Shown in pieces: positions 7,573-32,236 of a DNA stretch of 52,909 nucleotides; the first letter of the stretch is position 1, and every line of letters begins with the position of its first letter. The translations under genes were made by a program, and so were the position numbers. The DNA comes from an uncultured Planctomycetia bacterium (GTDB taxonomy: Bacteria > Omnitrophota > Gorgyraeia > Tantalellales > Tantalellaceae). The notes under the pieces were generated by a model, which was not told where the DNA came from, did no database searches, and saw nothing but the letters and a program-made list of their open reading frames with translations. Location: the NCBI GenBank assembly GCA_964421015.1, contig CAYQUS010000006.1, positions 47,096 to 100,004 on the forward strand, read 5' to 3'.

Positions 7573-7692
7573 AGGGGAGTGTCCTTATTTATATCCTTTT
7601 CAGGCGGCGAATTATTCCAGTGCTCGAATACACTTCTCAATGGTCTTCTGGCACTGATCCCTCATCTTTACTTCCCTAAACTCAACGGAAAC

Positions 7693-7937
7693 AGGTTAAT
7701 CCGCTCTCCGGGATGCTTCTGAGCCATTTTTAACGGAGAAAAAGTATGCCCGTTCCCTCTTTTCTCTGAAGTTCAAGGGAAAATTTTCAACTGTTTGAGC
7801 CGGAACAATAAACCACAAAACAAACCGGCGAGTTTTGAAAATTTAGGGCTGACTTTTTCGGACCCGTTACGTACTTATTACGAGGATAAGGGGCCGTTAA
7901 AACCGGCGAAGAAGCAGCCTGGAGAGCGGATTAACCT
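7693..7937. repeat. Structured non-coding element, copy 1 (core 7725-7902), enclosed by a 28 bp inverted repeat
   Basis: Core 7725-7865 aligns without gaps to 31945-32085 at 127/141 identity. Outer arms 7693-7720 and 7910-7937 are reverse-complementary at 26/28. Confidence 0.85.
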
Positions 7938-8152
7938 AATATTTCTAGCTTTTCAAAGGGTAACAATGAAGATTTGTTAAATATAAAAAAGTAAGCTTTC
8001 TAAACTGGTCTGCGGTAAAACCGTAACGTATACTCTATTTAACAGTTATTAAAATAAAACGTTTGTTATCTAGGCTTATTAGAGGGTAGCTTAGAAATTT
8101 TTTTGCCCGGTTACTTAATAGATTTTTAATTCATTTAAAACAGGGTGTAGAT

Positions 8153-11100
8153 GTGAAGATGCTGAGCACAAAAATAGCTGCTACGGATAAAGGGACCATA
8201 GGGAACAAAGCCAAAAGGCGTTTTAAGGCTTTGGTTAGCATGGTTACCGCCGTAGCTTTTCTTTCGAACACCCTAATGTACGATTCCGCTTTGGCCTCGC
8301 AAGTAAGCGCCCGGTATGCCCAGGATCATTCGGGGACGGGAGCCAAAAACGGATACGACGAGCTTGGGGCCGACAACTTTTCCATCCCGGATTTTCTAGG
8401 AGAAATAAAGTCCAGGCACGACTCGGCAGGATCAGGCACCATGGTCGTCCATATACAGGATGCGCACTGCAATTACGACTGTCAAAAGGCCATATCGGGA
8501 ATAATAAGCTACATACAGGAAAATTACGGAATAAACACAGTTAACCTTGAAGGTGGGGATGGCCTGTACGACCTTTCGGTCTTTACGGATATTCAGGACG
8601 CTCCGGTCCGTGAAAAGGTAGCCGACTATTTCGTGAACGAGGGGATACTGAGCGGCGCCGAATATTTTTCGGCGGTTTTCCCGGAAAAAACCGAACTTTG
8701 GGGCATAGAAGACCCGGGGCTTTACGCGGCTAACCGCGACGTTTACCGCAGTTCTCTTAAGAACATAGCCGCGGTAAATAGCGCTCTTTCAGTGATACAT
8801 ACTCAACTCAATGCGCTTAAAGACAGTACGTACAGCGACGATCTTAAGGATCTGGACAAAAAATACGGCGAGTACAAGTCGGGAGAGATGGATCTGAAAG
8901 ACTATCTTTCGTTCCTCTTTCTGAGAGGCGATGAGAGGGGTGTGGATAGGGGCGCTTACCCGAACATAAGTTCACTCTACGAAACAGCCGAGCAAGAGAA
9001 AAATATAGATTTCCGAGCCGCCAATTCCCAGAGGCACCTCCTTATTGACCGCATGGGGAGAAACCTTCCTCCTAAGATCGTGGGAGAATTAGGGGTAAAA
9101 ACTCTTAAGTTCCGTTCCGGCGAGATCTCTCAGACGGAATTTTACGAATTTCTCTCGAAAATGTCCCTAAGAGCAGGCATAAGCCTTTCAGAGTTCCCGG
9201 AACTTGAAAAGTATATAAAGTATGTTTCTCTTTATGACTCCATAGACAAGTCAGCGGTCATATCCGAGATGTCCTCTTTGGAGGAAGATCTTTGCCGCAG
9301 GTTTTCTTCCGGCGAAAAAGACAGGGAGCTCTGGGAGATATCACGGAACCTCACGTTCCTTGAGAACATGTTCGCCACGAGACTCACGCGCGAGGAATAT
9401 TCGCGGTATAAGTCCGGTCCTGAGGATTTTTCGGCGGCGAGGATAACAGCCTTCATAGAGAAAGAAAACCCTGCCGGAAAGCTTGAAATACGCCTTGCTT
9501 CGGCGGCGGCGGAAATCGACAGGCAAAAAGACGAGATCTCGGGTTTTTATGAATATTCCTTCAAAAGAGACGACGTATTCCTGGAAAAGATGAAATTTTC
9601 TTCCCGCGGGGAAGGCGGAAAAAGACGATACGCCATGCTTGTCACCGGCGGGTTCCATTCCGAGAACCTCGGTGAAATATTCCGGAAAAAGGGTTTTTCG
9701 TATGTCGCCGTAATGCCTAAGTTCCGCAATTGCGAAGGGTATGAAAGCCCCTATTACAGGCTTCTCGGGGGAGAGGAGAGCCCCGTGATAGCGGCCATTA
9801 AACAAAACGCTTCCGCGTCGGCATCGGCTCTTGCTCTTTACGGTTTTTTCTGCGCGACGTCAGGCGAGGTGAACGGTGACGCCGATGTGAACGCGGTGAA
9901 AACATGGGTCAAGCTTGTTACGGCTGTTTTCTCGCAAGATCTTTCAGACGGGCCTGTCGATGTGGACGGGGCATATAGAGTGAGCGAAGCGTCTTCCGAT
10001 GAAAGTGATGACGCTGCCGGTATAGTCCTTGATGTCGATGGCAGGAAGGTGATAGTTACTTACCTGTCTTCGGCGCAAGAGAGCGCCGCCGACGGACGTT
10101 TATCGAGAAGAAATTTCCTTAAGATGCTTGGGATAGGAGCGGCCACGGCCATAATTCCGGTTCGTTCAGAAGCCGAGGAAGAGCCCACAAGGGAAGAAAA
10201 GGAATCTCAAATAAGTGAATACCTCATGAGCGGATCGCTTGATGGAATAAAGATATCTGAACAGTACCTTTCTAAGGTCAAGGAGTTTATAAGTGACAGG
10301 GTTTTTTCAGATATCCCTACCATATACAGTGAAAGCCAACTTCCGCCCTGGTTCCTTTTCAGGCATTACTGCGCTCTTGAATTCGGGGAAACCGGTACTT
10401 CCGCGCCCGGGAAATCCGGACTGCATGTATCAAAAGCGAACGCGCACGGTCCTATACAGATGTGGACGGATCAGGCTGTCCAGCTTAATAAAAATCTGAC
10501 GACATGGAGAACCAGCAAGAGATCTAAAGATTCACCAAGGGACAGGGAAAAGCTGAAAGCTCTCGAAGAGTCATTCGCGAAATTCGGATTTAATATCGAT
10601 AAAGGAATAGAAGTAGCGAGGATAAAAAAAGACGCTAAGTACAGCGTTGCCATGGCCGTGGCCAACCTTAGGCTTATTTTTATGGACTGGGAGAGGTTTT
10701 TTGAGAAAGGCGCCGACCCGGTCGAGAGAAATGTCATGGAAAGACAGAAAAGGTTTTACACCCTTTCTCTGGTGGCGCTTCACAATTCGTCTCCTATAAC
10801 CGTCAAGCTGGCTATTCAGAACGGGGGGGAAGCTTGGGTAGAAAAATTAAGAGATGAGACCATAGGTCTTATGTGGCGGTTCTGCGTATTTTTAAAAGCG
10901 GTGAATACCGATCCCGACGTGGCGGCTCTTTTCGCCGAAATAGACCCCCAGATAAACATTCCCGAAGACGCTTTTCTCTCCGGGGAGGAAAGCCCGGTTC
11001 CTCTTATGGCTACGCGGGAGCTCGAGCCTGTAAACTTTGACGAGATAATGTCCAGGGTGGATGAAGCCGCTTACGCAAAGGAGAAACAATCCTCAAACAA

Positions 11101-14100
11101 AGTGAATGAACTGACAATGAAGTCTTTTGGGATATTCGATCTTGTGATTTACGCTCTGGCGGGAGCTGGAGCCGCTGTTATATCGCGTCGGATGTTGTTT
11201 CCTCTAAAAAACAATACCCACGCAACGAAAGAAAGGACAATGCAGGACAAAAGTATAGACATGGTGGCGAGGGTGTTCGCTGAATACGGTAAAGAAATTT
11301 CATATGAAGAAGCTAAATTTGTATGGCTTGCCATGCAGGAAGATCTGAGGATAGGCGGGATGGATGATTCTCCTCTTGCGGTTCAGAGGGGTCTTGTCAG
11401 GCTTATATCCGAGATGTCCCCCGACGGATTTCTAGATGCTTTCACGGAGGAGTATGGCACCCCTGAAAGCCCGGCGGAGAGGCTGCTTAACAGTCTGCGA
11501 AATATCTTTTCACCGGGGCGAGAAGGTTCCGACAGTGATGACGTGAACATAGCCGCTGGGGGTTCTATTAAAGTTACGCACACCGATGTTAATAAGTTTG
11601 TTGGTGACAATCTTCCCCGTGGGCTTTGGGGTGAAAGCCTTGAGGAAAGAGCCGAGAATCTCGATAACCTTGTAGAGGAAGGGACTGCCAAAGTACGCGT
11701 GACGGACGATGGCACGGAAGTGGTTTTAATTCCTATTAAAGGCCTTTTTAGGGCTTGCGGTCAGTTCGGGCATATAGGGCTTGGAAGAGCTTACGGAAGG
11801 CCTGTAGCATGGATAGACTCTGACTATATGGATAACGACATTGTTATCGGCCATGAGCTTTATGAGATAGACAGATGGGAACAGCACAGGAAGACTTTGG
11901 GGTATGACCCGGATATGATGAGAGGGTGGATAAGGGCGAATTTCGATCAAGCCCGTAAGCTTGCCGTAACGTGGCACAATGATAACAAATACAGCGTAGA
12001 GGATCTTTTCCTTGAGAATAAGACAGGGGTGCAGGTCGAAAGGCTTGACAGCATATTGACACGGATGAAGGTGTTTTATTCGGGAGAAAAGTTCAAAGAG
12101 TATATGAGGTCTCTTGCCGTAAAATACGCCGAGAACGGGCTTGAACTGGTTAATATAGACGGATTAGAAGGGGAACTTTTGAGCAGAATAGAGGAGATCA
12201 TTTCCGGTGTCGACTTAAAAGTATTGTCTGAAAGCCGTAGTCCCATCGGCATAAGGGGAAGCACAATAGAAGTGCTTTTAGCTTACGCTGAGTACATGAG
12301 CGACGAAGAACTGGCTATCGTGCTGGGGCACGAAGTGGGGCACGAGCTTGCCGACATTTTTCTTCCGGAACTTAGTCCTGACGCGAAATTTCTCCGTCAG
12401 GCGGCGGCTCTTCCCACGGATCTTGCGATCATAGGCGAAGACGGGGAATTCTTGTCGATTATCCACCAGGTGTACCGTCATGGAGGCAAGAAAAGAGAAT
12501 CGGCCGAAAATGAAATTCAGCAGCGCGAACTTTTCTCTGACGAAATAGGGATATTCCTGGCAGGGGCTATACTACCGGCGGAATTAAGAATAAGAGCCGG
12601 GGAAATAGCCGGGGATGTTCTTAATAAAACCTCCGAGTTCATCGACAATAATCTTAAAGACGACTCCGGAAGCGGATTTTTAAGCGTTCGAACGCATCCT
12701 TCGATAGAGGCCAGGGCGGCGAATCTTGGTTTTGGGCTAGGGATAAAAACTGCCGTCATGCTCACTGGGGTGGATCCGCTTAAAGAAGTAGCGGGGGAAG
12801 ATAAAGCAGATGAAATTTCGGGGTCGTATCCCTTAAGGGATCTTCTGTCCATTTTTGTGGAGACTTACGGCACAGATTTTGATCCCCAGGAGATAGATAG
12901 AGACGTAAACCTTGCCGCTGGGCCCGGAACAGGGGTTTCTCCGTTACGTAAAAAACCGCTTTTAGGTGTTATCCTGGATCATGTTAAGACTCTGGGGCAT
13001 AAACCGGGCGATGAAATAATAGTAGGGTTTACTTCTGATGGGATCCCCATAAAAGGCATTTTTAGAGGAATGGACGAGTACGGGGAGGAGATAATTTTCA
13101 GTCCCACCGGCTTTAATTTCGGAGCGATCCTCGGTAAAAACAAGGTTCTTTCCAGTGAAAGATATCTCCTATTTAACAGGTACGCTGAAAATGGATCTCT
13201 TATTATCGGCGGGAAAAAACACAGCCTTAGCGGTTTGGATTTTGGTCACGAAAAATTCCCGGAAATAGAAGGTATGTCTCTCAGGGAAGTTTTGAGGTAT
13301 ATGGCCATCGCGGAGGAGGGAGGTTGGTATGCCTGGGATTACCCTCTTGTTTCCGGCTATGATCTTGCGACAAAAAATGAGACCGAAGAAGATAAAAGAA
13401 GCCTTGCCGGAAGACCCAGGGGGGGGATGGCGTTCTATTCTCTGAAAGAAGGACGGCTGGTAACTTATATGTACACTTCTGTAGAGGTGCCTAACGGAAA
13501 GGGCGTTGAGTGGAGGATAGCGCGTATCGAGAGCGGGAAACCCCTGCCTCAGAACGAGACGGCCGCGCCTTCTTATCTGGTCAATGGGATAAGAGATGTC
13601 GAGGATATGGGGCAGGAGAATTTTGAGAACTTCTTTGATATGTATTGTCTTACCGATTCCTGGGACAGGAGCCTGATACGAGCCATGGCTGCGGTTTTAC
13701 GCGGCGAAAAAGACGCGGAGAAACTTAAAAACCTTTTGAGACCGTTCGACAAGTGGGGGGACGAAGTGAGGGTTAGCCCTGAAGACGTGAGAGCGTATAT
13801 GGAGGCCAGGGCGGAATATACCGCTTTAAGAGGGGATGATGATAAAAGAAGAACCGGGTTTTATAGCGCGAGGTCTTTTTTAATGGGGCTCTACGATGAA
13901 ACCGAAAAAAGCGAAAATTACTTCAGGTATTTCGGCGCGGTAAAAGATTCGGCGATGAACAAGCTCGCCTCTCTCGACGATGTTTTAAGAAGGTATTCAA
14001 GCGTAAGGTTCCCATCGGAGAAAGAGGTATCGCCTGAGGTTCAGAAAACAGCGGGAGAAGTGAAATCGGGAGACAGCATTTCATTCGGGTCGGAAACGTT

Positions 14101-23100: not shown

Positions 23101-26100
23101 CGGCACCGAATACTTGTCGGATATTCTCCGGTTGGGTAAAGAAGGTGGAAGTAACGGCTATCATGTTTTGGATGCTATCCTGAAACTCGAAGAAATTATT
23201 ACAACTAGAGATGAACTGAATAAGGTCGGAAGTGACCTCCTCGAACTCAGCAAGACGTCCGGAAAGAAAGGATGGCATCTTTTGGGTACGGGTATTTCGG
23301 CGGTCACAAAAACCTTCGCCGTCAAAGAGCTTAAAAACCGTTGGCCTGATCTCGTCAATATGGGTAAAGCGGCCGGAGTTGATGCAGGAAATCTTTTTGA
23401 ATACGGTATTCCGATGGTTGCGAAGGTTTTCACCGCAAAAGAGATGGATAGGGGTTGGCATTACCTTTCTAAGATAGCTATCGACGCCGGTCCGGCATCA
23501 TTATATCTTTTCGCGAAAGTGGTGCCGGCGCTCAGGGAATATCTTGTGGCCAAATGGGAGGATGAGGGATCGTTCGAAATGCCGCTACATGAGGTCGCAG
23601 CTGTTTTGTACGCGGAGGAAAAAGGACAAGACTTCGAGTTTGAGTTAAGTGCCAGGTCTGATGAAGAAAGTCTTGCCCGGATCGCGAGTCTGGCCTTGAA
23701 GTTTCTGGACGATAAAAAAGATCTCCACCTCCGGTATCTTGTCTATACCGGGAAATATGATGAAGTGAAAAAGTTGTTTGACGCTGGAGAATCTTCTCCA
23801 TCGGAGATCGCGGACATGGCTCTGGCAGTGAGGCAGGCCGATATAGCATCATATGCTACGGAGCTTGCTTTTTCAGGGAAGGACAGAGTCAAAACGGACA
23901 ATTACGGCAATATGATGCCGCTTCCTTACCTGGTACCGTTGAGTGACAGGATCGAAGTGCGGGCTGTTAGAAAAGAGGAGCTTATAAATGACCTTTCCAG
24001 CTTCGGGGTAAAAAAACCTTCAGAGGCGCTTGATGAAGCTTTAGCGAGGGGAGGTATGACAGTAAAGAACACCGCTGATGGTGATGTCATAGTCCCGGTT
24101 GTGCTCGATACCGTGTTGAGCGGTTACCGAGGGAGCCGCTCAGTTGATCATGTCAAGTCCACTTATCTTACATATGCTATCACTACCGTACTTTTTAAAT
24201 ACGCTAAGGATGGAGGTGCGCAGGCGAGTAGTGGCGAAAAAGGGGAAAGAGCCTCCGGGTTTACCGCCGTGCATGAGTTCGACGTCAATTTAATGAATCT
24301 TGCGGGGATGACCGAACGTTCGACAGATGACTATGTAGCGCGTGCTTTTTACTACGGTGAAGGTATGAGTCTGCCCGAATACGCCAGAAAAAGGAATATG
24401 GAAAACTATCCATTTACGCCCAGAGAGCAACTAGCCGAGCTTATGCGTTACCAGCGGAACGAACGCCGGGCAAAGCAGAACATCCGGCAGATATTCGAGT
24501 GGCTGTCGTCAGGCAGTCTAAGCGATGTCGAGGTCGCCTCCGCAATAGACGCCATGAGGAGAGAGCTCGCCGTGCTGGACCCGTGGTCCGGGACTTGCGG
24601 TCTGAATGAGGATTATTTCGACGCGGTGTACGGTTATCTTGACGGCAGATTCTTCGAAGATCTAACAACCGAATATAAGCCCGGCTCGGACAACAAGGTT
24701 ATTATCAACGGCCGGCTTAAAGATGCGATGTCGCGGCATAAGGTCCTGGTGACTCGGGCTGTCGGAGAGGCTCCGGAAGTGCGGTCCGATCATCCCTGGC
24801 TTGCTACAGGAATAACCCTGATCGACTATCTTGAAAACGAGGAGGTTATCCTTAAGGGAACGCCGAGTTACGCCGATCTTCGCACCATGAGAACGCCGGC
24901 GGATCTCGCGCCTGCCCCTGCGACCGGGGCGGCTGATCCGGAGACCCACGTCATCGGCGCGATGGACGAGGAGGAACCCGAGCCAGCTGCGCTCGCGGAA
25001 AAGAGCGGCAGTCATATGCCGGCTGGAACGGATAAGCTTTGGGTAGACGGTAGATTAAACAGCAGCGGCATTTTGCTTATGCACGCGTTAAACCATTTCC
25101 CTGAAGACGGGAGGCTTTATCCGAACAGTTATTTCGGGGACGAGCCCGTATTGATGAGAAATCCCCGCAACATCGTGGAGTTCTCATTCAATAATATCAT
25201 TCATTATTGGATGGAAGCCACATACATTGTCATCATACCGATGACTGCGATGCTGGATAGGCAATGGGTAAATATCTGGTATACAGCCACGTCTCATATG
25301 GGTCCGGTCTCTCTCCCTAAGGGTACGACAATAATGGTTCGAAGAGGCCGGGAGATATCAGAACAACAGATAGAGGCGTTAAAGGCAAAAGGTATAAGTA
25401 TTGTTTATTTCGATGAGAAAGGCTGGGCAGATTATGAAGCGGTCAATGTCGTTAAAGGCATGGGTTATGAACCTGTGACTATCTTTGGCGGTCCGTTTGG
25501 AGGGACAGATACAAGTTGGAAAAGTGAAAAGACGGATATGGATTACGGGAGCAAAGAAAACATGCCGCAGCTTAAGCAAGCCATAGGCCAACTGGCCGAA
25601 GAATTACATATTGCTTCAGCCGAGCCTACTTCCGAATATGACATAGGATACCTAACGATCTCTATGGAACTTCTGCATTCCGCATTTTTCGGAGGGGATC
25701 CGAACAGGCCTTCTGTCGATTGGGATGAATTCAACAGTTGTCACGAACGGGTTTTGAGAGACGGGAGATTTTCAGGGACCGAAGCTTGGACCAGGTTTAT
25801 GATGTTTGTTAAATTCTACAGGGACATATATCGTATTTACACTCTTGGGAACATGAAGTACCAGCACGCGTTGTTTTGGGTAAACCCAGATTATATAGAA
25901 TTTGCCATAGAAAATGACCCTGAGGAAGTTGAAGAGGCGTTGGTCTTGAGGGGCAGGATGCTGCAGGAATTCAATAAACTTTTTGATATCAATATCAGCG
26001 AAAGCGATCTTGCTTCAGAGGAAGATTTCAAGAAAGTTGCTGCTTTGGCGGCAGAAAAACGTTCTCAAGACGAAGCCGGCCTTCTTGCTTCCGCACCCAC

Positions 26101-29100
26101 CGCGAGCGGTGATCGAGTTGAAACTGCGGCCGCTGCTGACGGAGCGACCGATATCATCGGTGCGATGCTCGGGGATGCTGAACCCTCCGCACTGCCGGAT
26201 ACATACAGCTATTTCGCGAACGATCCTATAGGTAAAGATATTCCGAGAGAAGTAATTGAAGCCGGTATTACTGCGACAGGGAGAGGCGGTCTTTCATTCG
26301 GGTTTGCTAATTCCTCGGGCGAGATCCAGCTAAAGGCGCTCTCTAACAGTTTTAAGGAGCTTATTGCCCGGAAGAGATCTACCGGGGAGAGAACTCTAGT
26401 TATCCGCCAAATCGGACCGGGAGACGGCAGCGAAGCGGTTTCTATCTTGAGACGGCTTGACGATCTAATAGGATATGACCCGCAAGGAAAATGGGAGGTC
26501 ATAATAGATGTGGTTGATAATAACGAAAGTATTTTAGCGGAAGCCGAAGAGACCCTGGGAGCGGAGATGGCAGGGTTTGAGAATATAACGTGTAATGTCA
26601 GATATTCAAAAGCGGATGTTTTTGACGCGGCCGGTTTAAATGCGCTTAGAACAACCGGAGCGGCAGGCAGTACTGATTATATTATTTTCAGGAACGTGCT
26701 GAATATCAAACAGCATATCGACAGGGGGGATTTTGAATTAAAAGACATGGCGGCCTCGTTCATAGCTCTGCGGAATCTTATAGAGAACTTTGCCGGCGAG
26801 GATACAAAGCTTGTAATGGAGCCTTATCCGATACAGCCGCAGGACGGGCTTTTGGCCAACGGTATTTTGGATGCGGGCGATATAAAGAGTTTTCAAGAGG
26901 ACAACGGGTTCAGTAATTTTCTCAACTTGTTCGGAGCATCGGATATGATGCATATCGGCATATCAACGGCGTCGCCGGCAGAAGAGTTCCCGGCTGAGAT
27001 AAAGAACGAAGCGAAAAATATCCTGGAGGCAAGGATAGAAGCGTTAAAGGCCGATCCGGCACAGATATCAATGCTTATGGAAAATATCAGGGCGGCTTCC
27101 GTTCGGGGAAGAATGGATTTTGGAACGATCGCCGATATGGTAAAAGATTTTTATTTGATAACTTCCAGGGTGCCGCTCCCTGAAATTGAAGGCGGCAGGG
27201 AACCGGGCATACTTGAGTATGAGAGCGCCGGAGGTACTGTAAGATTTTTTGACGTCAATATCGGGACGATGGAGCCTGATGGCAAGGTTCTTTTGGCGCC
27301 AGAACTGTCTTCCGGTGATATCGGAATGGTTGTAAGGAATTCTGAAGATTATTTCAGGAACAATAAAGGACGTATAGCCGATATGGCCGCTGCCCGTTCT
27401 CTTGAAGCGGCGCGTAGTTTTATGTCGTTAGGGGAAGACAGAGAAGAGGAGAGAAAGAGCGCTCTTGAGGGCATGTGGAGGGATATCGTCGAGGAATCAA
27501 ACAGCTCCGACGAAATATGGTGTTTGGGCGCGGTATCCAGATTGAGCGCGTTACTGGCCATACACAAATATCTCGAGAGTGAAATGGGAGTCATCTTGCC
27601 GAGTTATTACAGATTTGTCACCGATACCGGTTCTTTTGAGGGTCAGGTAAAAGATAAAGGCCAAAGTTCTCCGATAGGGATTCTGGGGGAAAAGGTCGGG
27701 TTTGCCGTCGGGGTCTCAAAAGGCGATATTGAGAACATGCTGAAGAGCGGGACATTGGCCCATCCCGAGACGGGCGATTTAATAGAGCTTACAGAACGCG
27801 ATAAAGACAGGCTCAGCCGGCTTATTTCCGGTGCGGAGAAAGATGTATATGTTATTTCTTACGCTGATCTTTCCAGGGAAAAGTTAGAGGATATGCTTCC
27901 TAACCTTGGGAAATATATAGTCTCTTCCTTTGAGCCTCGCGCTGCGGAGATAGCTGAGGAGGTAATACAAGAGGATCCGGCCGACCGGACGGATGGCGAA
28001 GGCATGAGCCGCAGGGGTTTTCTAAAAGGAGTGGGGGCGATAGCTCTTACCGCGGCTATGGACACGGCGGCCTTGGACGTTGAAAGTTTCCTGGCCGAGG
28101 CTACCCCCGAAGAATTGGCGGAAAAATTGTTGACCCGGGATAATATCGACGAAACAAGCTTTGAAAAGATGACGAACGAATATGAGTATCTGACCCAGGC
28201 TTTCAGTAATACGAATTTCAGGGAATTTTCCAGGCACAAACCATCTGAAAAAGAGATAAGTTTTCTTGCCGGGTTAATAAGACACTGCCAGAAAGTGGAT
28301 ACTGAGAAACTAAACAAGCTGCTCGGGGCCGTTGAGAATGTGATTATCATAGAGAACGGTCCTCATGACGGAGGGGCGGGTTTTGGTGTGTTTTCCAATA
28401 ACAGCGTTGTGCTTGAATTTGACAGCGATCTGCCCACACTGAGCGAGGTGAGTACGCCGATATACGCGGGCCTTTTAATACATGAGGCGGCGCATGTGGA
28501 AGGGGCAAGAAAGGAAGTGCCTATAGAAGGCATATTGTCAGAAATATATGCCCGGCTCGAAGTTCTTGATTGGAAAGGTGTAGGCGCTAATTCCCAGTCC
28601 TGGATAGACGAAGAGCAGTATATGGTAGACATGATCACTTTGGGTATAGAGAAAGTTAAGGCGGAAAAGTCTATTGCCGGCACAAAGGTAACGCGGCACG
28701 ATATGGAAAAATCTGAAGCCGGCAAGGTATGGGACTACTACTGGGCTAATGGCGTTACAAGAATGGAAGCGGTCAGATTTATGGGCGCCGCGCGAGGTCT
28801 TTTGATGATGGAGGGCTACGCCGATTCCGAGGTAAAGTATATTTCCGGCACTGACAAACTTCGCCCTGACACGAAAGAGAGGGAAAAGGGACAGCCGGTG
28901 AAGGGGTATTGGATAGCATTTGATCTGGGAGGCGGGAAAACAGCTGAAATATTCTCAGGTGTAGATGAGAAAGGCGTTCTGTACGTCTTTTATGAAGGCG
29001 AGTGGACAAAGCTTTCGTTTAAACTTGAAGAGGCCAAGGCGAAGATGGGCCGGGGATTTGACGGCATAGGGGAATTGACCGTAGCCGCGTCGGCAAAATG

Positions 29101-31654
29101 GTACAAGGGTATGAAGGATGATAAAGAGGAACAGGAGGAGAGGGAAGCGCTTTCGCCGTCTCTGGATCTGGAAGAATTAACAGCGGCTCTCGATACTAAT
29201 CCGGCTATGGACGTCCGGGAATTTCATAAAGCCACAGACAGTTTTATTAGCACAAGATCCAACGGTTTGTATGATCTTTTTAATAACGCCGATCAGGATA
29301 TTCGCCGTGCTGAGCTGGAAAGGATAGTGAGGAGAAAATATGCCGGGAAATATATGGGTGAAATACCTGCGCACATACTCAAGGATAAAAATGGAAAGGA
29401 TGTTGTTAGCCGCGAAGGTGATAGAATACTTGTTGTAGCCCGCGGAATGCTTAAACCTTTTTCGCTTTTCGCTAGAGTGGAAAATGAAAAACCCCTGCCG
29501 GGGCTGTCTGTTATATGGGTCGATACTGCTTTTTACGGCAACGAGGAACTGGAAAATCTTATTTTGTCGGGAAACCCGGCTGAAAGATCGGAGGATGTTT
29601 TAGGGGGTCTTTACCGGACTCTCCCTGATAGTCTGAAAAATGAGATCGGTCAAGCGAGGATCAACAGGATATTCGACCGGATCCATACGGCAGCGCAGAC
29701 CCATCTGAATGAGTACTATTCGATGAGAGCTCACCCCGACGTGGCCGCGCCTAAAAAAGAGAAGGAGAGAGAGCTGCCCATACTTACGGTAAAAGTGAAT
29801 TCTGACGGAAAGCTGGCTTTTGCTCAGGGATGGATGAATACGATACAGTTCCGAATTGATATGCACGAATGGTCGAGCGAGGATGAATTGGCTTTTGTGG
29901 TGGCACATGAATGTGACCACATATGGCGCGACAAAGATTTTGATCATGATAATTTCGGACTTATGGTAGCGGCGCAGATAATGGCGGATGAAGGCGGAGT
30001 TCATCTTATGAAGTGGGCCGGGTTCGATCCGGATGGGGCCATAGAGGCTTTCGACAAATGGGTGGATACGGAGGCTAACAGGACGAGAGCTCCCGAAAAA
30101 AGTCTAGGGGAAATATCTGCCAGAAAGGCTGCTCTAAGATCGGCCGTTGAGACTTTTAAGGACATTTCTTCCGATAGTGAAATGAAAGATAGTTCCGGCG
30201 ACGAGGTAGAAATTCTGTCTAGATCCGGGAGCCTTATCGGCAAGGTTGAGGTCGAGGTTGATGGTAAACTGAAAGTTTTGACCGATGGTTTCGCGGCCAG
30301 GGAAGTAACAAGGGATGGCAAGAAAATGTTATCTGTTTCTCATGCCGAACTCGCGGAAGACATAGCGGTAGGCCTCGGTGAAGAAGTTGAGGACGCGGGC
30401 GCGGTGAATAGCGCCGTAAGCTCGCTTTTGAGCGGCGCGAAGTTCCTCAATGCCGGATATGACGCTGAGCTAAAACAACTTATGGAAGAGAAACTGTTAA
30501 ATATAACGCGCATAGTCGCGCTTGAGCCTAACGAAAATATTGTGGGATTTTTCTCGGACAATACACTCTATGTAAATGAAAGTCTTCTTGCCGACAATAT
30601 GGCGCTTATACATGAACTTGGCGAAAGCCTGGCCGAAGGGTTTATAGCCTCTATTACTGCTGAATACCCGGGCATAAATATGCATACTTACATGCGCGGC
30701 GCCGGGAAGGATGTTCACAGGGCCTATAGCGCGCTTAAAGATCCGGCTTCGATCTTGAAAGAAAGCGGCGCAAGGGGACTGATCGACGCCATAAATGTTA
30801 AGATGAAAGAGCTTACCGGGAGGCCGGAAATGTCCCCGGCAGAAGAAGCTCTTATACTGCTGAACGCTTCTCAAAGAGGGACAGCGGTTTCTCCGGACAA
30901 GGATCCGACCCGGGGTCTTCTTTTCGGGTTCCAGGACAGGCTTGACCCCTCGGGCAACGTAAGGCTTTCTAAACATATCGGTCAGGTGCTTAACGACATG
31001 AATAGAGGAGCGCTTAACATAATGGTACTTCCTGCTGGTGATATAATGTCAGAGGCGGCCAAGAAGTCGGCCGGCCGGCAGGCCTCGAGAACCTTGGAAC
31101 GGAAGTTTGGCACAAACACCCGGGTATACAGTTTTACCTCTGATATTGTTTCTTCTATAAAAACAGCCATGGCCGAGGCAGAGAAGGCCATGGAGAACAC
31201 ACAGGAAAAAGTTTATCCGAAAATATTCGTTAACTGTGTGAGCCTTGAGCAGAAGAATAACGAGGTTATGCCTTACCTGGAAACTCTATCTCCTGACGCG
31301 AGAAATATGATAGTGGTAAATTATGAAAATATACCTGATGCCGAAAGGTCCACGATAGACGAAGTGGCCATGATAATGGTGGGTAGCGCGATATTGAACG
31401 ATCATAGGCTCAGTGTAGACTTTAAACTGCCGAAAGAAGCGTTATCCGAGGGCAGAAAGAACATGATAACCGCTTTTAGCGAGGCGGGAATAATAGAGAT
31501 AGAGGAAAACGATGACCTTGCTACGGCCGAGGGGCTAGACAGCATAATGCAGAAGTTCTACACCGGACAGAGGCCTCTTACCATAAACAAGATAAACTGG
31601 CAGGAACTCCGAGATTACCAGGACTCCATGGATCTTATACTTAAGTCGGCGTAA
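8153..31654 (+). CDS. Giant (7833 aa) exported multi-domain protein
   Basis: Uninterrupted 23.5 kb ORF with an N-terminal signal-peptide-like segment. Motifs read by eye: IQDAH..EGG..GGFH (8453-9658), SLT-like (10300-10900), HExxH at 12329, 15416, 16043, 28481 and 29906, FHA (14150-14320), SAM-MTases (14480-15060; 26250-26900), ABC1-like kinase (19180-20360), TPR-like repeats (20930-21260), GT9-like (21670-22700). Confidence 0.93.
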   Translation: MKMLSTKIAATDKGTIGNKAKRRFKALVSMVTAVAFLSNTLMYDSALASQVSARYAQDHSGTGAKNGYDELGADNFSIPDFLGEIKSRHDSAGSGTMVVHIQDAHCNYDCQKAISGIISYIQENYGINTVNLEGGDGLYDLSVFTDIQDAPVREKVADYFVNEGILSGAEYFSAVFPEKTELWGIEDPGLYAANRDVYRSSLKNIAAVNSALSVIHTQLNALKDSTYSDDLKDLDKKYGEYKSGEMDLKDYLSFLFLRGDERGVDRGAYPNISSLYETAEQEKNIDFRAANSQRHLLIDRMGRNLPPKIVGELGVKTLKFRSGEISQTEFYEFLSKMSLRAGISLSEFPELEKYIKYVSLYDSIDKSAVISEMSSLEEDLCRRFSSGEKDRELWEISRNLTFLENMFATRLTREEYSRYKSGPEDFSAARITAFIEKENPAGKLEIRLASAAAEIDRQKDEISGFYEYSFKRDDVFLEKMKFSSRGEGGKRRYAMLVTGGFHSENLGEIFRKKGFSYVAVMPKFRNCEGYESPYYRLLGGEESPVIAAIKQNASASASALALYGFFCATSGEVNGDADVNAVKTWVKLVTAVFSQDLSDGPVDVDGAYRVSEASSDESDDAAGIVLDVDGRKVIVTYLSSAQESAADGRLSRRNFLKMLGIGAATAIIPVRSEAEEEPTREEKESQISEYLMSGSLDGIKISEQYLSKVKEFISDRVFSDIPTIYSESQLPPWFLFRHYCALEFGETGTSAPGKSGLHVSKANAHGPIQMWTDQAVQLNKNLTTWRTSKRSKDSPRDREKLKALEESFAKFGFNIDKGIEVARIKKDAKYSVAMAVANLRLIFMDWERFFEKGADPVERNVMERQKRFYTLSLVALHNSSPITVKLAIQNGGEAWVEKLRDETIGLMWRFCVFLKAVNTDPDVAALFAEIDPQINIPEDAFLSGEESPVPLMATRELEPVNFDEIMSRVDEAAYAKEKQSSNKVNELTMKSFGIFDLVIYALAGAGAAVISRRMLFPLKNNTHATKERTMQDKSIDMVARVFAEYGKEISYEEAKFVWLAMQEDLRIGGMDDSPLAVQRGLVRLISEMSPDGFLDAFTEEYGTPESPAERLLNSLRNIFSPGREGSDSDDVNIAAGGSIKVTHTDVNKFVGDNLPRGLWGESLEERAENLDNLVEEGTAKVRVTDDGTEVVLIPIKGLFRACGQFGHIGLGRAYGRPVAWIDSDYMDNDIVIGHELYEIDRWEQHRKTLGYDPDMMRGWIRANFDQARKLAVTWHNDNKYSVEDLFLENKTGVQVERLDSILTRMKVFYSGEKFKEYMRSLAVKYAENGLELVNIDGLEGELLSRIEEIISGVDLKVLSESRSPIGIRGSTIEVLLAYAEYMSDEELAIVLGHEVGHELADIFLPELSPDAKFLRQAAALPTDLAIIGEDGEFLSIIHQVYRHGGKKRESAENEIQQRELFSDEIGIFLAGAILPAELRIRAGEIAGDVLNKTSEFIDNNLKDDSGSGFLSVRTHPSIEARAANLGFGLGIKTAVMLTGVDPLKEVAGEDKADEISGSYPLRDLLSIFVETYGTDFDPQEIDRDVNLAAGPGTGVSPLRKKPLLGVILDHVKTLGHKPGDEIIVGFTSDGIPIKGIFRGMDEYGEEIIFSPTGFNFGAILGKNKVLSSERYLLFNRYAENGSLIIGGKKHSLSGLDFGHEKFPEIEGMSLREVLRYMAIAEEGGWYAWDYPLVSGYDLATKNETEEDKRSLAGRPRGGMAFYSLKEGRLVTYMYTSVEVPNGKGVEWRIARIESGKPLPQNETAAPSYLVNGIRDVEDMGQENFENFFDMYCLTDSWDRSLIRAMAAVLRGEKDAEKLKNLLRPFDKWGDEVRVSPEDVRAYMEARAEYTALRGDDDKRRTGFYSARSFLMGLYDETEKSENYFRYFGAVKDSAMNKLASLDDVLRRYSSVRFPSEKEVSPEVQKTAGEVKSGDSISFGSETFVLEFKGGKYLIAGKVLEDGGTYSVGRGSENYIRVLNGSVSREHAVIKVYDGKVFIEDKSSMNGTFVNGKKIASPTESKPGQRKEAASSSRVYAVFNNWQKGLVNIAGSMDEVKAHNYDDTSMFHIVPVDVPQDVYVGAHQSSIISARAAADIDNVKPGSRVLVIGTGMGLEAYIAMGRGAHVDAVDINPSALKSTENLCGKLPPEGRGSLRTFLYDVMPGGIRENALADEYDLIIFNMPHYAAPTSGDDKEITATRDPGGQLIGPTSEIVKTRLASGGRAVLVNTEGENVRKTLESQIGLTVFPDPIYGMDPSMAYVVENGNNAILNDLIDLLGIDVSRNFGVRKQLVALAELIRRKQLAAGGVSVPEVTEGDLAGINIPDIIVKVNRLNGKTLGMLGMGGMMPGAAKAQSLMVNLLSGRAPVTNMFLRAWGVVSTPFHEFAHYLAALMFGANPKLSVSGLFTGEITIDRAPPSKAATYLIYSAGLLANLALAGASAYYLLNYGQTVSVFAWVLLTWVAAANAASAIIELVGAPFGKGDLAKARARRVDDSEVFKGDVKELVLDTRVLGLIKFMNESSGFLKLDHPIVSKLQEYVDRMTGQGMRAPRLLIAIDGESPDAFRVPGNIVINLALIRALDTLGEVVSVIAHELGHEEAPEKVFNNIGSGRMHELSADHDAVEKVTAMDFPSNSMENALRKIIKPRSFQDAVHGSLSHRIVPILAGWALNDLEARYGALSRDEQSIPDTWKFGIQKSVYEKLIYGNPNREFYRALEGASFDLVKDTLEKIMKDSPLGEYSDTPKRGEHVLSEKVLAMLNRMNAILEDTAIKEGLGDDERNAIFLGATKVMNEPVFRPPYSDKGIAYFEDSAKWKYTLIARGDHKKATKSERAITAIMRSRIEQYLKTLDPLNLRGEITAKHFASPVYFSPSAHSIELMIHDKEIAKNIFGVGYISEESPIFISNMISFLEKFNGEMSGYERQSIVGGIFIRFIELYWERKAWTFSRDNVLELISQLRESFKLVEGNSLFGKFYSEISTEGWDYNRFFKYIAPESGVVGKEEYERLLFGRKDENYERLMDCFRNRDEDAFMEVLRISGVYKTLKYLSKEDYPGTAEIFAADGNLPAWVVSVLEKRWEDIDEYSFGEIKALLSSSHVPMINDLVELYKAVEPPIAKIISASQIIAGLPVDDHVENYLSMSKEFLDSASVSAAISSMSVENQGLLFAGLAAIFRGKFDFFYELEVERYGAVDDYLKMQAWTDYIKLTQEKLKLEPSLEGLVNTYDLFVRLTYANFYGYHRYDDMLYAGLSEYSSGWMSEINQVFYESLLRLSDEALDVTKDQDLAVKYYLDIMDRFPASETKRGILDILARRLVDKLDEAHLSMFFERLSSKGHLSKNVYSYFVSKRINTFEDSEKMSKFIRDRYARMLSGEDIIPAFIAGMDTGGDQALSPETASDIFSAAMLSGKDEKVLWEALETHWYQIYVGGAKRLLYSFEVRDGRIEVVGLGRDNFVPLKTFVDSVLDMSENSKLALMERLLVSPNGLLHHESGRKRFVELIRENIPGSDSLSAILKEAVGSVVDNVDAERVFMMFRDVIRPFFLRRQEGFTVEGEFLKMLALRNISRVDEDNYINEDSVTRNLNGLSPEVFMSLIRGDIERAPLAARINYSKTRNDFLSRFGEKLGVGSLPESEVPPSDAGALDILILAAESLGPMGVRSLQVMGQYMDIPAEYETRFREVYDSNEGIDKFIAFDILKKSAERDPGVKYFLENELVSIGDKLGGGSIMTAFLIKVKDPATGKIRDEVLKVRAPNAEVRVDDTYEKLIRVVRDMKTRATASKKANYEIAERLLSDIRDWIRDDINDETFLELDQKYAEFHKNYRDSRGTRVRIPGAFSPNNRDVKREELVRGETLNSLLREGRGEILKPAVQAVVEDFARTLVNPVFNDSDGEEVFLLHSDIHFGNAMVEQKDPASTEDLTVALIDRNLYLRLTRKEVDFMRSLLLAENTSDIAHLSNVIKYFAGDLSGARQLAITASIARKIKMGGVKSGIGALAIILKEFEFNSIHVPIRMRILFKNLSAIETMLRTVDGGEFRDYLKTVIDLEREVSAEKETASKSFHMSDEALAAFRIEMLERIKAGNKMTIDDAIGYLESEKVPDYSPIMIALGNAKTKDLTREDDINSLMEGLSEEEEVALAILIQPRQGGGETGDTGIVGEMQEASPVPEDVHVEKEIEAMSSEAARENNAYNYTVCLELIAGDYHANIPLTAINTNLDGSVRDAELSTKTLVGVLNIQDDRSKYLSLQEITRACPLLRDTSQAGNVLTEALSIARNIQDDYYKSLSLQEIAKAYVLLKDYSRAGEILPEALSVALNILSDRSRSVSLREIARVYMTIGVDAGRLSVLRGQFENVRRLAEETFMDPNIAGQIIATLFKEKISPASINNESDIVDLFWKINDPAEKKIFLEKVIQPAFFKNRSLFTQDVLEKLQTLYLRDVPGTKHILFWANMKRDAPSLYLDEVFSLHGSVESILKKGKKRVLVGHNVYDGQGDELIINAPLIQALLDYNPELEVTIITLRPYLYSHPRIHVHDIGKEDVVTDRFFDMVADRPFDMVIEEFDSLPGSIKTGASLFLDIEIGSMWGYRPHHVERGVQKYHVEIEAQKYVIQIDADNVYTPGMELMAEFGLTFRAGIEKTQSGCIFTSTPYQIAEDYWENKVLPAAKGAKEIVVFNGFGGMLEEKGFARTSEGREQFREALTALIGSGRFVVILPNDQDWGTVEVANTMINSLSPEAKKFCMIAPSPIEDPLLHKYLVSKADRVVTVEGGLMHLAYNMGKPYVVLFAQDPDTIRRWAPVSASNEQKAYVSNLSPAAIIDSYLKNVPHLAPAIGTAEPETGIVVAMSGEKVPVVAEEAPEEREAREFIEANADFAAAIAPYRYLTDRYGYRPWKELYDAAGPIKYGHFVQVIPELAKIFTKEKLIEYWPDIVEIGKTASFNVPLLFSSILPGLKSAFGTEYLSDILRLGKEGGSNGYHVLDAILKLEEIITTRDELNKVGSDLLELSKTSGKKGWHLLGTGISAVTKTFAVKELKNRWPDLVNMGKAAGVDAGNLFEYGIPMVAKVFTAKEMDRGWHYLSKIAIDAGPASLYLFAKVVPALREYLVAKWEDEGSFEMPLHEVAAVLYAEEKGQDFEFELSARSDEESLARIASLALKFLDDKKDLHLRYLVYTGKYDEVKKLFDAGESSPSEIADMALAVRQADIASYATELAFSGKDRVKTDNYGNMMPLPYLVPLSDRIEVRAVRKEELINDLSSFGVKKPSEALDEALARGGMTVKNTADGDVIVPVVLDTVLSGYRGSRSVDHVKSTYLTYAITTVLFKYAKDGGAQASSGEKGERASGFTAVHEFDVNLMNLAGMTERSTDDYVARAFYYGEGMSLPEYARKRNMENYPFTPREQLAELMRYQRNERRAKQNIRQIFEWLSSGSLSDVEVASAIDAMRRELAVLDPWSGTCGLNEDYFDAVYGYLDGRFFEDLTTEYKPGSDNKVIINGRLKDAMSRHKVLVTRAVGEAPEVRSDHPWLATGITLIDYLENEEVILKGTPSYADLRTMRTPADLAPAPATGAADPETHVIGAMDEEEPEPAALAEKSGSHMPAGTDKLWVDGRLNSSGILLMHALNHFPEDGRLYPNSYFGDEPVLMRNPRNIVEFSFNNIIHYWMEATYIVIIPMTAMLDRQWVNIWYTATSHMGPVSLPKGTTIMVRRGREISEQQIEALKAKGISIVYFDEKGWADYEAVNVVKGMGYEPVTIFGGPFGGTDTSWKSEKTDMDYGSKENMPQLKQAIGQLAEELHIASAEPTSEYDIGYLTISMELLHSAFFGGDPNRPSVDWDEFNSCHERVLRDGRFSGTEAWTRFMMFVKFYRDIYRIYTLGNMKYQHALFWVNPDYIEFAIENDPEEVEEALVLRGRMLQEFNKLFDINISESDLASEEDFKKVAALAAEKRSQDEAGLLASAPTASGDRVETAAAADGATDIIGAMLGDAEPSALPDTYSYFANDPIGKDIPREVIEAGITATGRGGLSFGFANSSGEIQLKALSNSFKELIARKRSTGERTLVIRQIGPGDGSEAVSILRRLDDLIGYDPQGKWEVIIDVVDNNESILAEAEETLGAEMAGFENITCNVRYSKADVFDAAGLNALRTTGAAGSTDYIIFRNVLNIKQHIDRGDFELKDMAASFIALRNLIENFAGEDTKLVMEPYPIQPQDGLLANGILDAGDIKSFQEDNGFSNFLNLFGASDMMHIGISTASPAEEFPAEIKNEAKNILEARIEALKADPAQISMLMENIRAASVRGRMDFGTIADMVKDFYLITSRVPLPEIEGGREPGILEYESAGGTVRFFDVNIGTMEPDGKVLLAPELSSGDIGMVVRNSEDYFRNNKGRIADMAAARSLEAARSFMSLGEDREEERKSALEGMWRDIVEESNSSDEIWCLGAVSRLSALLAIHKYLESEMGVILPSYYRFVTDTGSFEGQVKDKGQSSPIGILGEKVGFAVGVSKGDIENMLKSGTLAHPETGDLIELTERDKDRLSRLISGAEKDVYVISYADLSREKLEDMLPNLGKYIVSSFEPRAAEIAEEVIQEDPADRTDGEGMSRRGFLKGVGAIALTAAMDTAALDVESFLAEATPEELAEKLLTRDNIDETSFEKMTNEYEYLTQAFSNTNFREFSRHKPSEKEISFLAGLIRHCQKVDTEKLNKLLGAVENVIIIENGPHDGGAGFGVFSNNSVVLEFDSDLPTLSEVSTPIYAGLLIHEAAHVEGARKEVPIEGILSEIYARLEVLDWKGVGANSQSWIDEEQYMVDMITLGIEKVKAEKSIAGTKVTRHDMEKSEAGKVWDYYWANGVTRMEAVRFMGAARGLLMMEGYADSEVKYISGTDKLRPDTKEREKGQPVKGYWIAFDLGGGKTAEIFSGVDEKGVLYVFYEGEWTKLSFKLEEAKAKMGRGFDGIGELTVAASAKWYKGMKDDKEEQEEREALSPSLDLEELTAALDTNPAMDVREFHKATDSFISTRSNGLYDLFNNADQDIRRAELERIVRRKYAGKYMGEIPAHILKDKNGKDVVSREGDRILVVARGMLKPFSLFARVENEKPLPGLSVIWVDTAFYGNEELENLILSGNPAERSEDVLGGLYRTLPDSLKNEIGQARINRIFDRIHTAAQTHLNEYYSMRAHPDVAAPKKEKERELPILTVKVNSDGKLAFAQGWMNTIQFRIDMHEWSSEDELAFVVAHECDHIWRDKDFDHDNFGLMVAAQIMADEGGVHLMKWAGFDPDGAIEAFDKWVDTEANRTRAPEKSLGEISARKAALRSAVETFKDISSDSEMKDSSGDEVEILSRSGSLIGKVEVEVDGKLKVLTDGFAAREVTRDGKKMLSVSHAELAEDIAVGLGEEVEDAGAVNSAVSSLLSGAKFLNAGYDAELKQLMEEKLLNITRIVALEPNENIVGFFSDNTLYVNESLLADNMALIHELGESLAEGFIASITAEYPGINMHTYMRGAGKDVHRAYSALKDPASILKESGARGLIDAINVKMKELTGRPEMSPAEEALILLNASQRGTAVSPDKDPTRGLLFGFQDRLDPSGNVRLSKHIGQVLNDMNRGALNIMVLPAGDIMSEAAKKSAGRQASRTLERKFGTNTRVYSFTSDIVSSIKTAMAEAEKAMENTQEKVYPKIFVNCVSLEQKNNEVMPYLETLSPDARNMIVVNYENIPDAERSTIDEVAMIMVGSAILNDHRLSVDFKLPKEALSEGRKNMITAFSEAGIIEIEENDDLATAEGLDSIMQKFYTGQRPLTINKINWQELRDYQDSMDLILKSA

Positions 31655-31677
31655 AGTTGGGAAGTATGGGGTAACAC

Positions 31678-31756
31678 GAAAGAGCCCGGCATATTCCTGC
31701 CAGGGCCCCTCCGCCCGGTGTGGATCCTCCCTGTACGGAATATGCCGGGCTCTTTC
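31678..31756. other. Perfect 20 bp inverted repeat downstream of the giant gene
   Basis: GAAAGAGCCCGGCATATTCC (31678-31697) and GGAATATGCCGGGCTCTTTC (31737-31756), with a 39 nt GC-rich interior, followed by TTCT. Possibly a terminator or RNA-stabilising stem. Confidence 0.8.
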
Positions 31757-31944
31757 TTCTCCGCTATGACACTTACCCCCTCCCTTCGCTCAGGAAACTG
31801 CAGCCTCATTGCCCTCGGGGACCATGCCCGCTCGGTCGACCAACGCCCTTCCGGGAACATCGGGCATCTGCCGGCAATACCCAATACATTGAAAGACACC
31901 TCCCCCGGGTGTTAAGGCAAGACTGGACCCAAGACATTTCGAAG

Positions 31945-32105
31945 CATTTTTAACAGAGAAAAAGTATGCCCGTTCCCTCATTATAGTGACGCTGTAGGGA
32001 AAATTTTCAACTGTTTGAGCCGGAACTATACACCACAATACAACCCGGCGAGTTTTGAAAATTTAGGGCTGACTTTTTCGGACCCTCCGAAGGAGGGGCT
32101 GTTAA
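31945..32105. repeat. Structured non-coding element, copy 2
   Basis: Direct repeat of 7725-7902 with the same nested complementary segments. It closes with CTGTTAA against TTAACAG. Confidence 0.85.
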
Positions 32106-32114
32106 GGACACCTT

Positions 32115-32172
32115 GGTGCCAGGCACTAAGATCGTGCCAGGCACCAAACTACCTGAAACAGCGGTCTCACTG
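32115..32172. repeat. GTGCCAGGCAC doublet plus CAGTGAGAC module (reverse orientation)
   Basis: 32115-32145 is the reverse complement of 6507-6536 with a 1 nt insertion. 32155-32172 matches 4496-4513 (reverse complement) at 16/18. Confidence 0.8.
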
Positions 32173-32210: not shown

Positions 32211-32236
32211 CACCATAGACCCTTCCTTCTAAACCG

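Follow-up and report, generated by a model that had tools for sequence, protein, structure and literature searches.

We analysed a 52,909-nt stretch of DNA from an uncultured Planctomycetia bacterium placed by GTDB in the Omnitrophota (GenBank assembly GCA_964421015.1, contig CAYQUS010000006.1, positions 47,096 to 100,004 of the forward strand; hereafter the window), in which two direct copies of a structured intergenic element, the rod, lie on either side of a giant gene encoding a 7,833-aa open reading frame (ORF). Both are members of a small family of palindromic rods that is specific to one lineage, a single Candidatus Omnitrophota species. The family is new in sequence and varies the theme of palindromic intergenic repeats by joining an invariant branched core to a covarying clamp stem. 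The rods are very probably a dispersed structured intergenic repeat without specificity for giant genes, and they do not look like a dedicated vehicle of the giant gene. Our favoured reading, which we hold with about even confidence, is that they are co-transcribed RNA modules acting in cis at the 3' ends of transcription units or as insulators between units. The observation made in a preliminary description of the window was confirmed and extended, and its interpretation was partly supported.

Anatomy and fold of the rod

The two copies align without gaps between 7725-7865 and 31945-32085 with 127 identities in 141 positions, exactly as first described; 13 of the 14 differences fall in side-hairpin loops and one falls in the closing stem. 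All stems originally listed were found once each, in the same order in both copies, and recur in the minimum free energy (MFE) folds. The element is larger than the about 160-180 nt first proposed: the core measures 163-178 nt, and the complete rod, which in copy 1 runs past both ends of the initial delimitation, measures 245 nt with its outer stem (Table 1). The core contains a three-way junction and is enclosed by an inner stem and by an outer stem of 20-30 bp across complete units, spanning 27 positions in copy 1 (25 Watson-Crick pairs, one G-U pair and one mismatch, read by hand). From the outside inwards, the stems are the outer stem, GCC/GGC, the closing stem TTTTTAACRG/CYGTTAAAA, an 8-bp stem (GAAAAAGT/ACTTTTTC) and a 4-bp stem (GCCC/GGGC). 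The three-way junction bears two side hairpins, TTCCCT/AGGGAA and a composite hairpin (AAATTTTCAA/TTGAAAATTT with GCCGG/CCGGC) that carries a 21-nt, A/C-rich loop. A tip hairpin (GGACCCTCC...GGAGGGGC), which in copy 1 holds a 15-nt insertion, lies on the 3' side.

The 44-nt arms of copy 1 form the strongest inverted repeat of the 53-kb window. The 256-nt region around this copy folds with an MFE of -110.8 kcal/mol, against -62.9 +/- 5.1 kcal/mol for shuffled sequences (z = -9.4, 0/200 shuffles), and the rod folded as single-stranded DNA (ssDNA) gives z = -10.2; for copy 2, z = -4.6. We built a covariance model (R1) from the four distinct copies described below and ran it on the window with filters off. 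It recovered both copies with the scores given in Table 1, the next match reaching 9.6 bits; the E-values of R1 are rough and the scores unambiguous. A core 30-mer occurs in the window at two sites only, one in each copy, with an expectation of 0.

The rod had not been recognised as a known RNA family, and the Rfam searches bear this out: Rfam 15 gave 0 matches in the whole window at the gathering threshold, and at E<=10 on both spacers it gave only generic hairpin (miRNA-precursor) models, far under threshold. Two specific assignments were rejected. A ribozyme, hammerhead or other, is disfavoured by a three-way junction that leaves only some 4 nt unpaired and by the lack of an Rfam match; for a Y-RNA, an idea that came from the rtcB neighbour of one further copy, there is neither an Rfam match nor a Ro-binding motif.

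Copy 2 (31912-32107) is truncated on its 3' side. Its likeness to all other copies stops directly after CTGTTAAGG at 32107, exactly past the GTTAA of the closing stem, and it lacks both the 3' inner arm and the 3' outer arm; no sequence complementary to its 5' arm was found anywhere in the window. The octamer TGTTAAGG occurs both at the distal end of this arm (31910-31917) and at the break point (32100-32107), and GACACCT occurs on both sides of the copy (31895 and 32108), recurrences that could be a scar of the loss of the 3' arm, or chance.

Copy 1 and its junction with the giant gene were confirmed by an independent assembly (L014), and the joining of the 3' end of copy 2 to rimP by two others (L001 and L002). 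The join between the 3' end of the giant gene and copy 2 is seen in the window assembly only and passes through the repeat. The contigs of L001 and L002, which come from two other read sets, begin exactly 32 nt inside copy 2, where a k=31 assembly graph that meets a repeat would start them. The rods of the window lie in direct orientation, 24.2 kb apart, and have an identical run of 41 nt in common.

Dispersal, constraint and covariation

Copies outside the window were searched by scanning metagenomes and 185,579 reference genomes for an exact core 20-mer. The metagenome scan gave four real matches: an ortholog of copy 1 (L014, ERZ795059), a single locus found twice with identical sequence (L008, Ga0116156, and L011, ERZ795059) and a further distinct locus (L009, ERZ795059). 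All copies score 185-199 bits with R1, except the truncated L011 copy (168 bits). At least four loci make up this dispersed family, which appears to be low in copy number and restricted to one species-level lineage. The shared assembly, the near-identical cores and the similar coverage given in the contig names (3.7-4.5x) suggest, short of proof, that L008 and L009 lie in the same genome as the window. The reference genomes contained only 3 chance matches (Campylobacter, Acutalibacteraceae, Albibacterium), without flanking similarity. Viral contigs gave one chance match in one scan and none in another, neither plasmid and phage collections nor a distant blastn search gave a match to the element, and nhmmer and the covariance model detected no copy in about 110 kb of related Omnitrophota loci (L016-L025).

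These loci do not sustain the special link with giant genes that was first proposed, as the same core occurs past a gene for a 247-aa SIMPL protein and upstream of rtcB. In being dispersed and not specific to giant genes, the rod resembles the high-copy genome-wide repeat that the preliminary description had set against its own proposal, whereas it is low-copy so far and its outer stem covaries strongly.

For the four paralogous cores, 47 pairs are predicted, almost all of them invariant. Variation is concentrated in unpaired columns (23/69 variable, 46/69 invariant) relative to paired ones (10/94 variable, 84/94 invariant; Fisher p = 6e-4), which extends to four copies the clustering of differences in loops already remarked on for two. 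The compensatory change reported earlier for the closing stem, A-U to G-C, is the only solid one in the core; the tip hairpin, where copy 1 aligns poorly, may hold a second. The outer stems of the three complete copies were compared in register from the core over their inner 24 positions, which had been checked separately in copy 1 and were used for the covariation count. Both sides changed in 15 of the 24 pairs, with 95.8% of cells paired; 0/500 shuffles reached any of five measures, and sliding the partner by 1-3 nt lowered pairing to 41-49%. Nine of the 24 columns are invariant and similarity falls off outward, which indicates that the proximal arms are homologous, while the distal parts may be unrelated.

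The main rival to an RNA-level function bears on this outer stem and accounts for it well. The rods might be DNA-level palindromes, either selfish or neutral dispersed inverted repeats or sites for protein binding or cruciform extrusion, acting or spreading as DNA, whose outer arms were kept complementary and grew into unique flanks by intramolecular template switching and not by selection on RNA; we regard this as possible, if doubtful. The distal outer arms are unalike among copies and nearly perfectly paired, the outcome to be expected when one arm serves as template for the other (PMC8604942, PMC13100816, PMC7202029). Every stem is Watson-Crick, the ssDNA fold is as strong as noted above and the copies are dispersed. 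The core moreover has A/T-tract stems and a motif, TTTCAACTGTTTG, one mismatch away from the IHF consensus, WATCAANNNNTTR. Against this account, template switching predicts stems that covary and not stems of invariant sequence, whereas the four paralogues have identical core stems with loops about 50% diverged. No transposase or RAYT gene is nearby, and spread as a transposase-driven miniature inverted-repeat transposable element (MITE) is unlikely, the termini being unconserved and free of target duplication.

MITE membership was rejected on the outer arms, which differ at 15/24 positions in three copies, and on conservation, which decays toward the ends. Multiple dispersed copies, as in a MITE, are present at four distinct loci, presumably of a single genome. 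No direct repeat marking a target-site duplication was found at the ends of the three complete rods, whose exact positions are uncertain by a few nt, and neither the window nor the fetched loci contain a parent insertion sequence or transposase.

Two hints concern the strand. The wobble pairs of the outer stems (n=3) are all G-T on the + strand, which also speaks against a DNA-level palindrome, and in 3/3 complete rods the RNA fold of the + strand is more stable, by 2-9 kcal/mol, than that of the - strand; both are no more than suggestive.

Conservation between strains was assessed against L014, where 612 differences in 9.5 kb amount to 93.6% identity with the window. None of these differences touches the 245 nt of the rod, and the longest stretch without any in the whole alignment, 7591-7938, ends one base past the rod. 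At the local non-coding rate (about 1.9%) the probability of 0 differences in the rod is about 0.01, and it is far lower at the overall rate.

Coding potential was also considered. One + frame is open across the whole element in 4/4 copies (7725-7980 and 31945-32173 in the window, L008 and L009), and the 15-nt insertion of copy 1 keeps this frame. That the element encodes a small protein is nevertheless hardly credible: the copies have just one start codon in common, a TTG that lacks a Shine-Dalgarno sequence, an in-frame stop lies just before the core of copy 1, nearly all in-frame substitutions are non-synonymous, substitutions track stems and loops and not codons, and a six-frame chimeric query matched no called ORF among 5.8 billion proteins. 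The open frame is probably a by-product of sequence composition.

Position of the rods and possible modes of action

In 3/3 copies with readable context, the rod lies at the end of a unit, in the sense of the upstream gene, ahead of the next promoter or a convergent gene. Copy 1 follows an FNR-like oxidoreductase gene, the last of its unit in a relative. Copy 2 is flanked by the giant gene stop and by the conserved rimP promoter and leader; with the promoter-like site the next transcription unit begins, which places copy 2 on the 3' side of the giant gene. In L008, a 247-aa SIMPL/DUF541 gene has its stop codon immediately before the rod, which runs in the sense of that gene and occupies the whole spacer up to a convergent PTS EIIA gene. 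At L009, the rod ends about 60 nt 5' of rtcB (80 nt counted from the inner stem) and the contig stops just upstream of the rod.

It is this unit-end, sense position of the readable copies that leads us to favour a co-transcribed 3'-end or insulator module. The rod would be transcribed as the tail of the upstream mRNA and fold into a long hairpin acting in cis, with the role of setting or protecting the 3' end and of an insulator against the next promoter. Its outer helix of more than 20 bp may be a natural substrate of RNase III or an element that blocks exonucleases, and the invariant core would probably serve as a protein-binding platform. Copy 1 would then close the unit of the FNR-like gene, and the 3'-truncated copy 2 that of the giant gene ahead of the rimP promoter. 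On this view, the bracketing arises because the giant gene forms a transcription unit by itself.

Several observations weigh against this reading. We infer transcription of the rods from position only, and gene ends may just be places that tolerate insertions. The distinct copies number only four, and the upstream neighbour of the L009 copy is not readable. With all stems Watson-Crick, a DNA hairpin or cruciform fits equally well, and template switching from arm to arm can keep inverted repeats complementary in the absence of any RNA function (PMC7202029, PMC8604942, PMC13100816). The tract without differences in the ortholog could be a recent recombination tract. Finally, there is no U-tract past the rods and no intrinsic terminator is predicted there, and the rods do not fall in the intrinsic terminator class, having no terminator-like hairpin with U-tract.

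The best functional analogy is with the Correia repeats of Neisseria, also known as Correia repeat enclosed elements (CREE) or Neisseria miniature insertion sequences (NEMIS). These are co-transcribed with their neighbours, form long hairpins that RNase III can cut or bind, contain an IHF site and alter the expression of adjacent genes (PMC2649163). The rods share with them a dispersed intergenic location, a length of 100-250 nt and inverted-repeat arms around a conserved core. Unlike the rods, whose termini are the least conserved part and lack any duplication, CREE have conserved terminal inverted repeats and duplicate TA; rod copy number also appears low, and there is no sequence similarity.

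Enterobacterial repetitive intergenic consensus (ERIC) sequences, or intergenic repeat units, and repetitive extragenic palindromic (REP) units, including bacterial interspersed mosaic elements (BIME), are imperfect palindromes of transcribed intergenic regions, often at operon 3' ends, which fold in mRNA and affect its stability. ERIC are about 127 nt long and unusually well conserved between species, and REP units are 20-40 nt long and linked to RAYT transposases. The rods are likewise imperfect palindromes, intergenic and at the 3' ends of genes or operons, and, as in elements of the Correia or ERIC type, each is a single long hairpin in sense with neighbouring genes. ERIC, unlike the rod, is a simple rod without a three-way junction, and neither ERIC nor REP joins an invariant core to a freely covarying outer stem. 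REP/BIME membership was rejected, given a 245-nt unit with a branched core and a window without a Y1 transposase.

The third comparison is with the RNase III stems that flank rRNAs, long helices formed by 5' and 3' sequences that are free to vary as long as they pair. The rod resembles them in surrounding a conserved structured RNA with a long helix of variable sequence, and differs in that it encloses an RNA of 163-178 nt, is multi-copy and lies, putatively, in mRNA tails. By the same comparison the rods could be a family of trans-acting small RNA genes, the outer stem being a processing stalk that releases a stable core RNA of about 200 nt. A core constrained in sequence within a stem that drifts yet stays complementary, the perfect conservation of the orthologous copy and an apical 21-nt A/C-rich loop, about 80% conserved and a possible binding site, would suit such RNAs. 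We find this improbable, as no promoter was found ahead of the rods, the L008 rod directly abuts the upstream stop codon, copies do not conserve the loop that is most exposed (hairpin 1), Rfam holds no related RNA and the distribution is confined to one lineage.

Returning to the 3'-end or insulator reading, we inspected the remainder of both spacers. The three strongest inverted repeats of the window all sit in the two spacers flanking the giant gene, and the order is the same in both: a stop codon, a unique long hairpin 24-48 nt on, the rod and the next unit. These unique hairpins were rejected as degenerate rod copies, their alignment scores being within the shuffle range. The spacer region of the first one (7456-7692) has 2 differences in 237 nt relative to L014. 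No site resembling an intrinsic terminator was found in 7400-8250, and near copy 2 the only one on the + strand is the rimP leader hairpin (32236-32264).

Table 1. Coordinates of the rods and of neighbouring features in the window.
Feature	Position	Strand	Basis and remarks
FNR-like oxidoreductase gene	6736..7455	+	Pfam; gene order in L016; spacer sequence
Long hairpin between the FNR-like stop and copy 1	7503..7643	+	18-nt arms, 94% complementary; no likeness to the element
Copy 1, complete rod (outer stem, inner stem, core)	7693..7937	+	44-nt inverted-repeat arms; MFE -110 kcal/mol; same sequence in independent assembly L014
Copy 1 outer stem, 5' arm (variable among copies)	7693..7719	+	Pairs with 7911-7937
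Copy 1 core	7725..7902	+	Covariance model R1, 184.9 bits, E 3.5e-44; consensus structure
Copy 1 outer stem, 3' arm	7911..7937	+	Pairs with 7693-7719
Giant ORF, 7,833 aa, between the two copies	8153..31654	+	ORF list; FHA, M48-like and GT9-like matches
28-bp hairpin, 24 nt past the giant gene stop, upstream of copy 2	31678..31756	+	Inverted-repeat scan; unrelated to the element
Copy 2 5' arm, without partner	~31912..31944	+	Alignment; proximal ~11 nt homologous to the arms of other copies
Copy 2 core	31945..32107	+	Covariance model R1, 196.9 bits; alignments; 3' end confirmed in L001 and L002
Hairpin of GTGCCAGGCAC repeats abutting the copy 2 break, unrelated to the element	32108..32150	+	Fold; inverted-repeat scan
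rimP promoter-like site and conserved leader hairpin with T-run	32182..32270	+	TTGACA-17-TACAAT (11/12); terminator-like hairpin; same leader in relatives

The rimP leader, 3' of the promoter-like site and upstream of rimP-nusA-infB, reads GACCCTTCC...GATAAGTGGGCC...GGCCCGCTTATTTTTTT and combines a hairpin with a T-run. It is kept in Omnitrophota relatives whose RimP is only 57-62% identical (L016 at about 900-990, L019 at about 165-250, L023 at about 600-690). It resembles a conserved attenuator or leader for the nusA operon and is absent from Rfam. In a related Omnitrophota bacterium, the contigs of four independent assemblies (L019 at 100-160, L020, L021, L022) all break 240-500 nt upstream of rimP, and at these breaks there is a tandem duplication, AAACCGGGGATAGC(TT/CC)TTGACAA, that contains a -35-like hexamer. 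Further downstream in the window, a perfect 15-bp hairpin with a 3-nt loop (46243-46275) lies 37 nt past an rpsA-like gene with six S1 domains and is probably the terminator of that gene.

The giant gene and the history of its locus

The window is a housekeeping region, with cdsA-dxr-rseP-ispG-proS and the FNR-like gene before the first rod and rimP-nusA-infB-trpS onward after the second. In a relative whose RimP is 60% identical (L016), 22 nt separate the FNR-like gene from the rimP promoter, which makes the 24.7 kb from 7456 to about 32181 in the window lineage-specific. The block holds the giant gene, both rods and two long hairpins unrelated to them, and its restriction to the lineage, shown by synteny, is among the supported parts of the initial interpretation. 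The giant gene has come to lie, by placement or by growth, within a conserved order of housekeeping genes. Base composition carries no signal of horizontal transfer, the GC content of the giant gene being like that of its neighbours.

The N-terminal 600 aa or so of the giant protein, which have no Pfam match, are common to 7,677 clusters of mostly very long proteins (mostly 2,000-7,700 aa) at about 40% identity. The C-terminal 1,200 aa are essentially orphan, the sole match being a 94%-identical internal fragment; this fragment and the RimP homologues are annotated as Candidatus Omnitrophota. An FHA domain, an M48-like match and a GT9-like match lie at about aa 2005-2063, 2574-2646 and 4782-4830 respectively. 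HExxH motifs number 5 (aa 1393, 2422, 2631, 6777 and 7252), against 0.16 expected. Two internal SRR[NG]FLK motifs resembling twin-arginine translocation (Tat) signals (aa 651 and 6619) are each followed by a hydrophobic stretch, and the conserved N-terminal part stops just ahead of the first. Between the window and L014, the giant gene diverges faster (88-96% identity) than proS (97.0%) and the FNR-like gene (97.6%). Comparison of 8153-15733 with L014 2300-11256 shows about 1.39 kb of extra sequence in L014 where the window has 20 nt (15303-15323), from which it follows that the length of the giant gene varies within the species.

The preliminary description had further proposed that the repeats record or mediate mobility of the giant gene. 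Under this explanation, they are footprints or tools of its arrival, excision, exchange or amplification, either through a circle (gene plus one element) integrating into a resident element or through a structure-specific, attC-like recombinase; on the present evidence we consider it unlikely. Favourable points are the absence of the whole block from a relative with otherwise conserved gene order, the flanking of the giant gene by the sole two copies in about 63 kb examined (window and L025), the end of copy 2 exactly past the GTTAA of the closing stem with TGTTAAGG at both 31910 and 32100, and the 41-nt identical run, which suffices for RecA-mediated deletion.

The other copies, however, adjoin ordinary small genes, and the window contains no integrase, transposase, recombinase or reverse transcriptase. 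There is no target duplication, and a crossover-hybrid origin of the two copies was ruled out, as the 5' and 3' arms of copy 1 match each other and form an intact self-complementary unit. The giant gene has native-like GC, and its N-terminal domain is a member of a very large family found in long proteins. Given about 8 spacers of at least 100 nt in the window, chance would set two copies on either side of one gene in about 25% of cases, so that their placement, though real as described, carries little significance. Exact-protein look-ups of the FNR-like gene, proS and a distal gene found no deletion form or other strain on record, and no deletion-form contig was found in a search of low power. 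As direct repeats of 163 nt with a 41-nt identical run, the copies could still occasionally delete the giant gene by homologous recombination.

The attC sites of integrons, including highly similar chromosomal ones such as the Vibrio cholerae repeats, are 57-141 nt long, carry the boxes RYYYAAC (R'') and GTTRRRY (R'), which pair at the outer end of the site, have an unpaired central spacer and, between R and L boxes, extrahelical bases, function as folded single strands and occur in arrays next to intI or in clusters within 4 kb. The rods likewise are directly oriented, structure-conserved palindromes that separate genes, and their closing stem resembles the R''/R' boxes (YYYAAC/GTTRRR): TTTTAAC and GTTAAA(A/G) each match at 6/7 positions, a resemblance that would favour mobilisation. 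Unlike attC, the rod is 178-245 nt long, carries a whole hairpin between the 3' halves of its inner stems, which would correspond to the L' and R' boxes, comes without an integrase and occurs as copies 24.2 kb apart or solitary, which would make the 'cassette' more than 20x the usual size. Pairing also runs 27-31 bp past the putative R boxes, and exchange of the attC type would destroy it. Membership was rejected because of the length, the hairpin placed between the inner stems, the complementarity past the R-like boxes and the context. A more far-reaching idea, which we hold to be very improbable, is that of a new structured module in which a dedicated protein reads the invariant three-way-junction core, the clamp stem is free in sequence and direct pairs of rods delimit an exchangeable giant-gene cassette, amounting to attC-like recombination or processing of 24-kb genes in Omnitrophota.

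The phylum is known for giant genes (bioRxiv 10.1101/2023.11.21.568195; 10.64898/2026.06.07.730766), and repeats of this kind are unmentioned in either of these two papers. Omnitrophota are uncultured, and the locus bears on how giant genes are expressed, insulated and exchanged. The known distribution of the rods is narrow (one species-level lineage, 4 loci), which limits their general importance for now, yet the family bears signatures that usually mark function, namely invariant core stems, a covarying outer helix and perfect conservation between strains that differ by about 3% in housekeeping genes. If the rods are recombination sites, they would explain the turnover of giant genes; if they are RNA 3'-end or insulator modules, as we favour, they would provide a handle on transcript architecture in a phylum without genetics. 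The covariance model R1 is a concrete probe with which complete Omnitrophota genomes can be searched.

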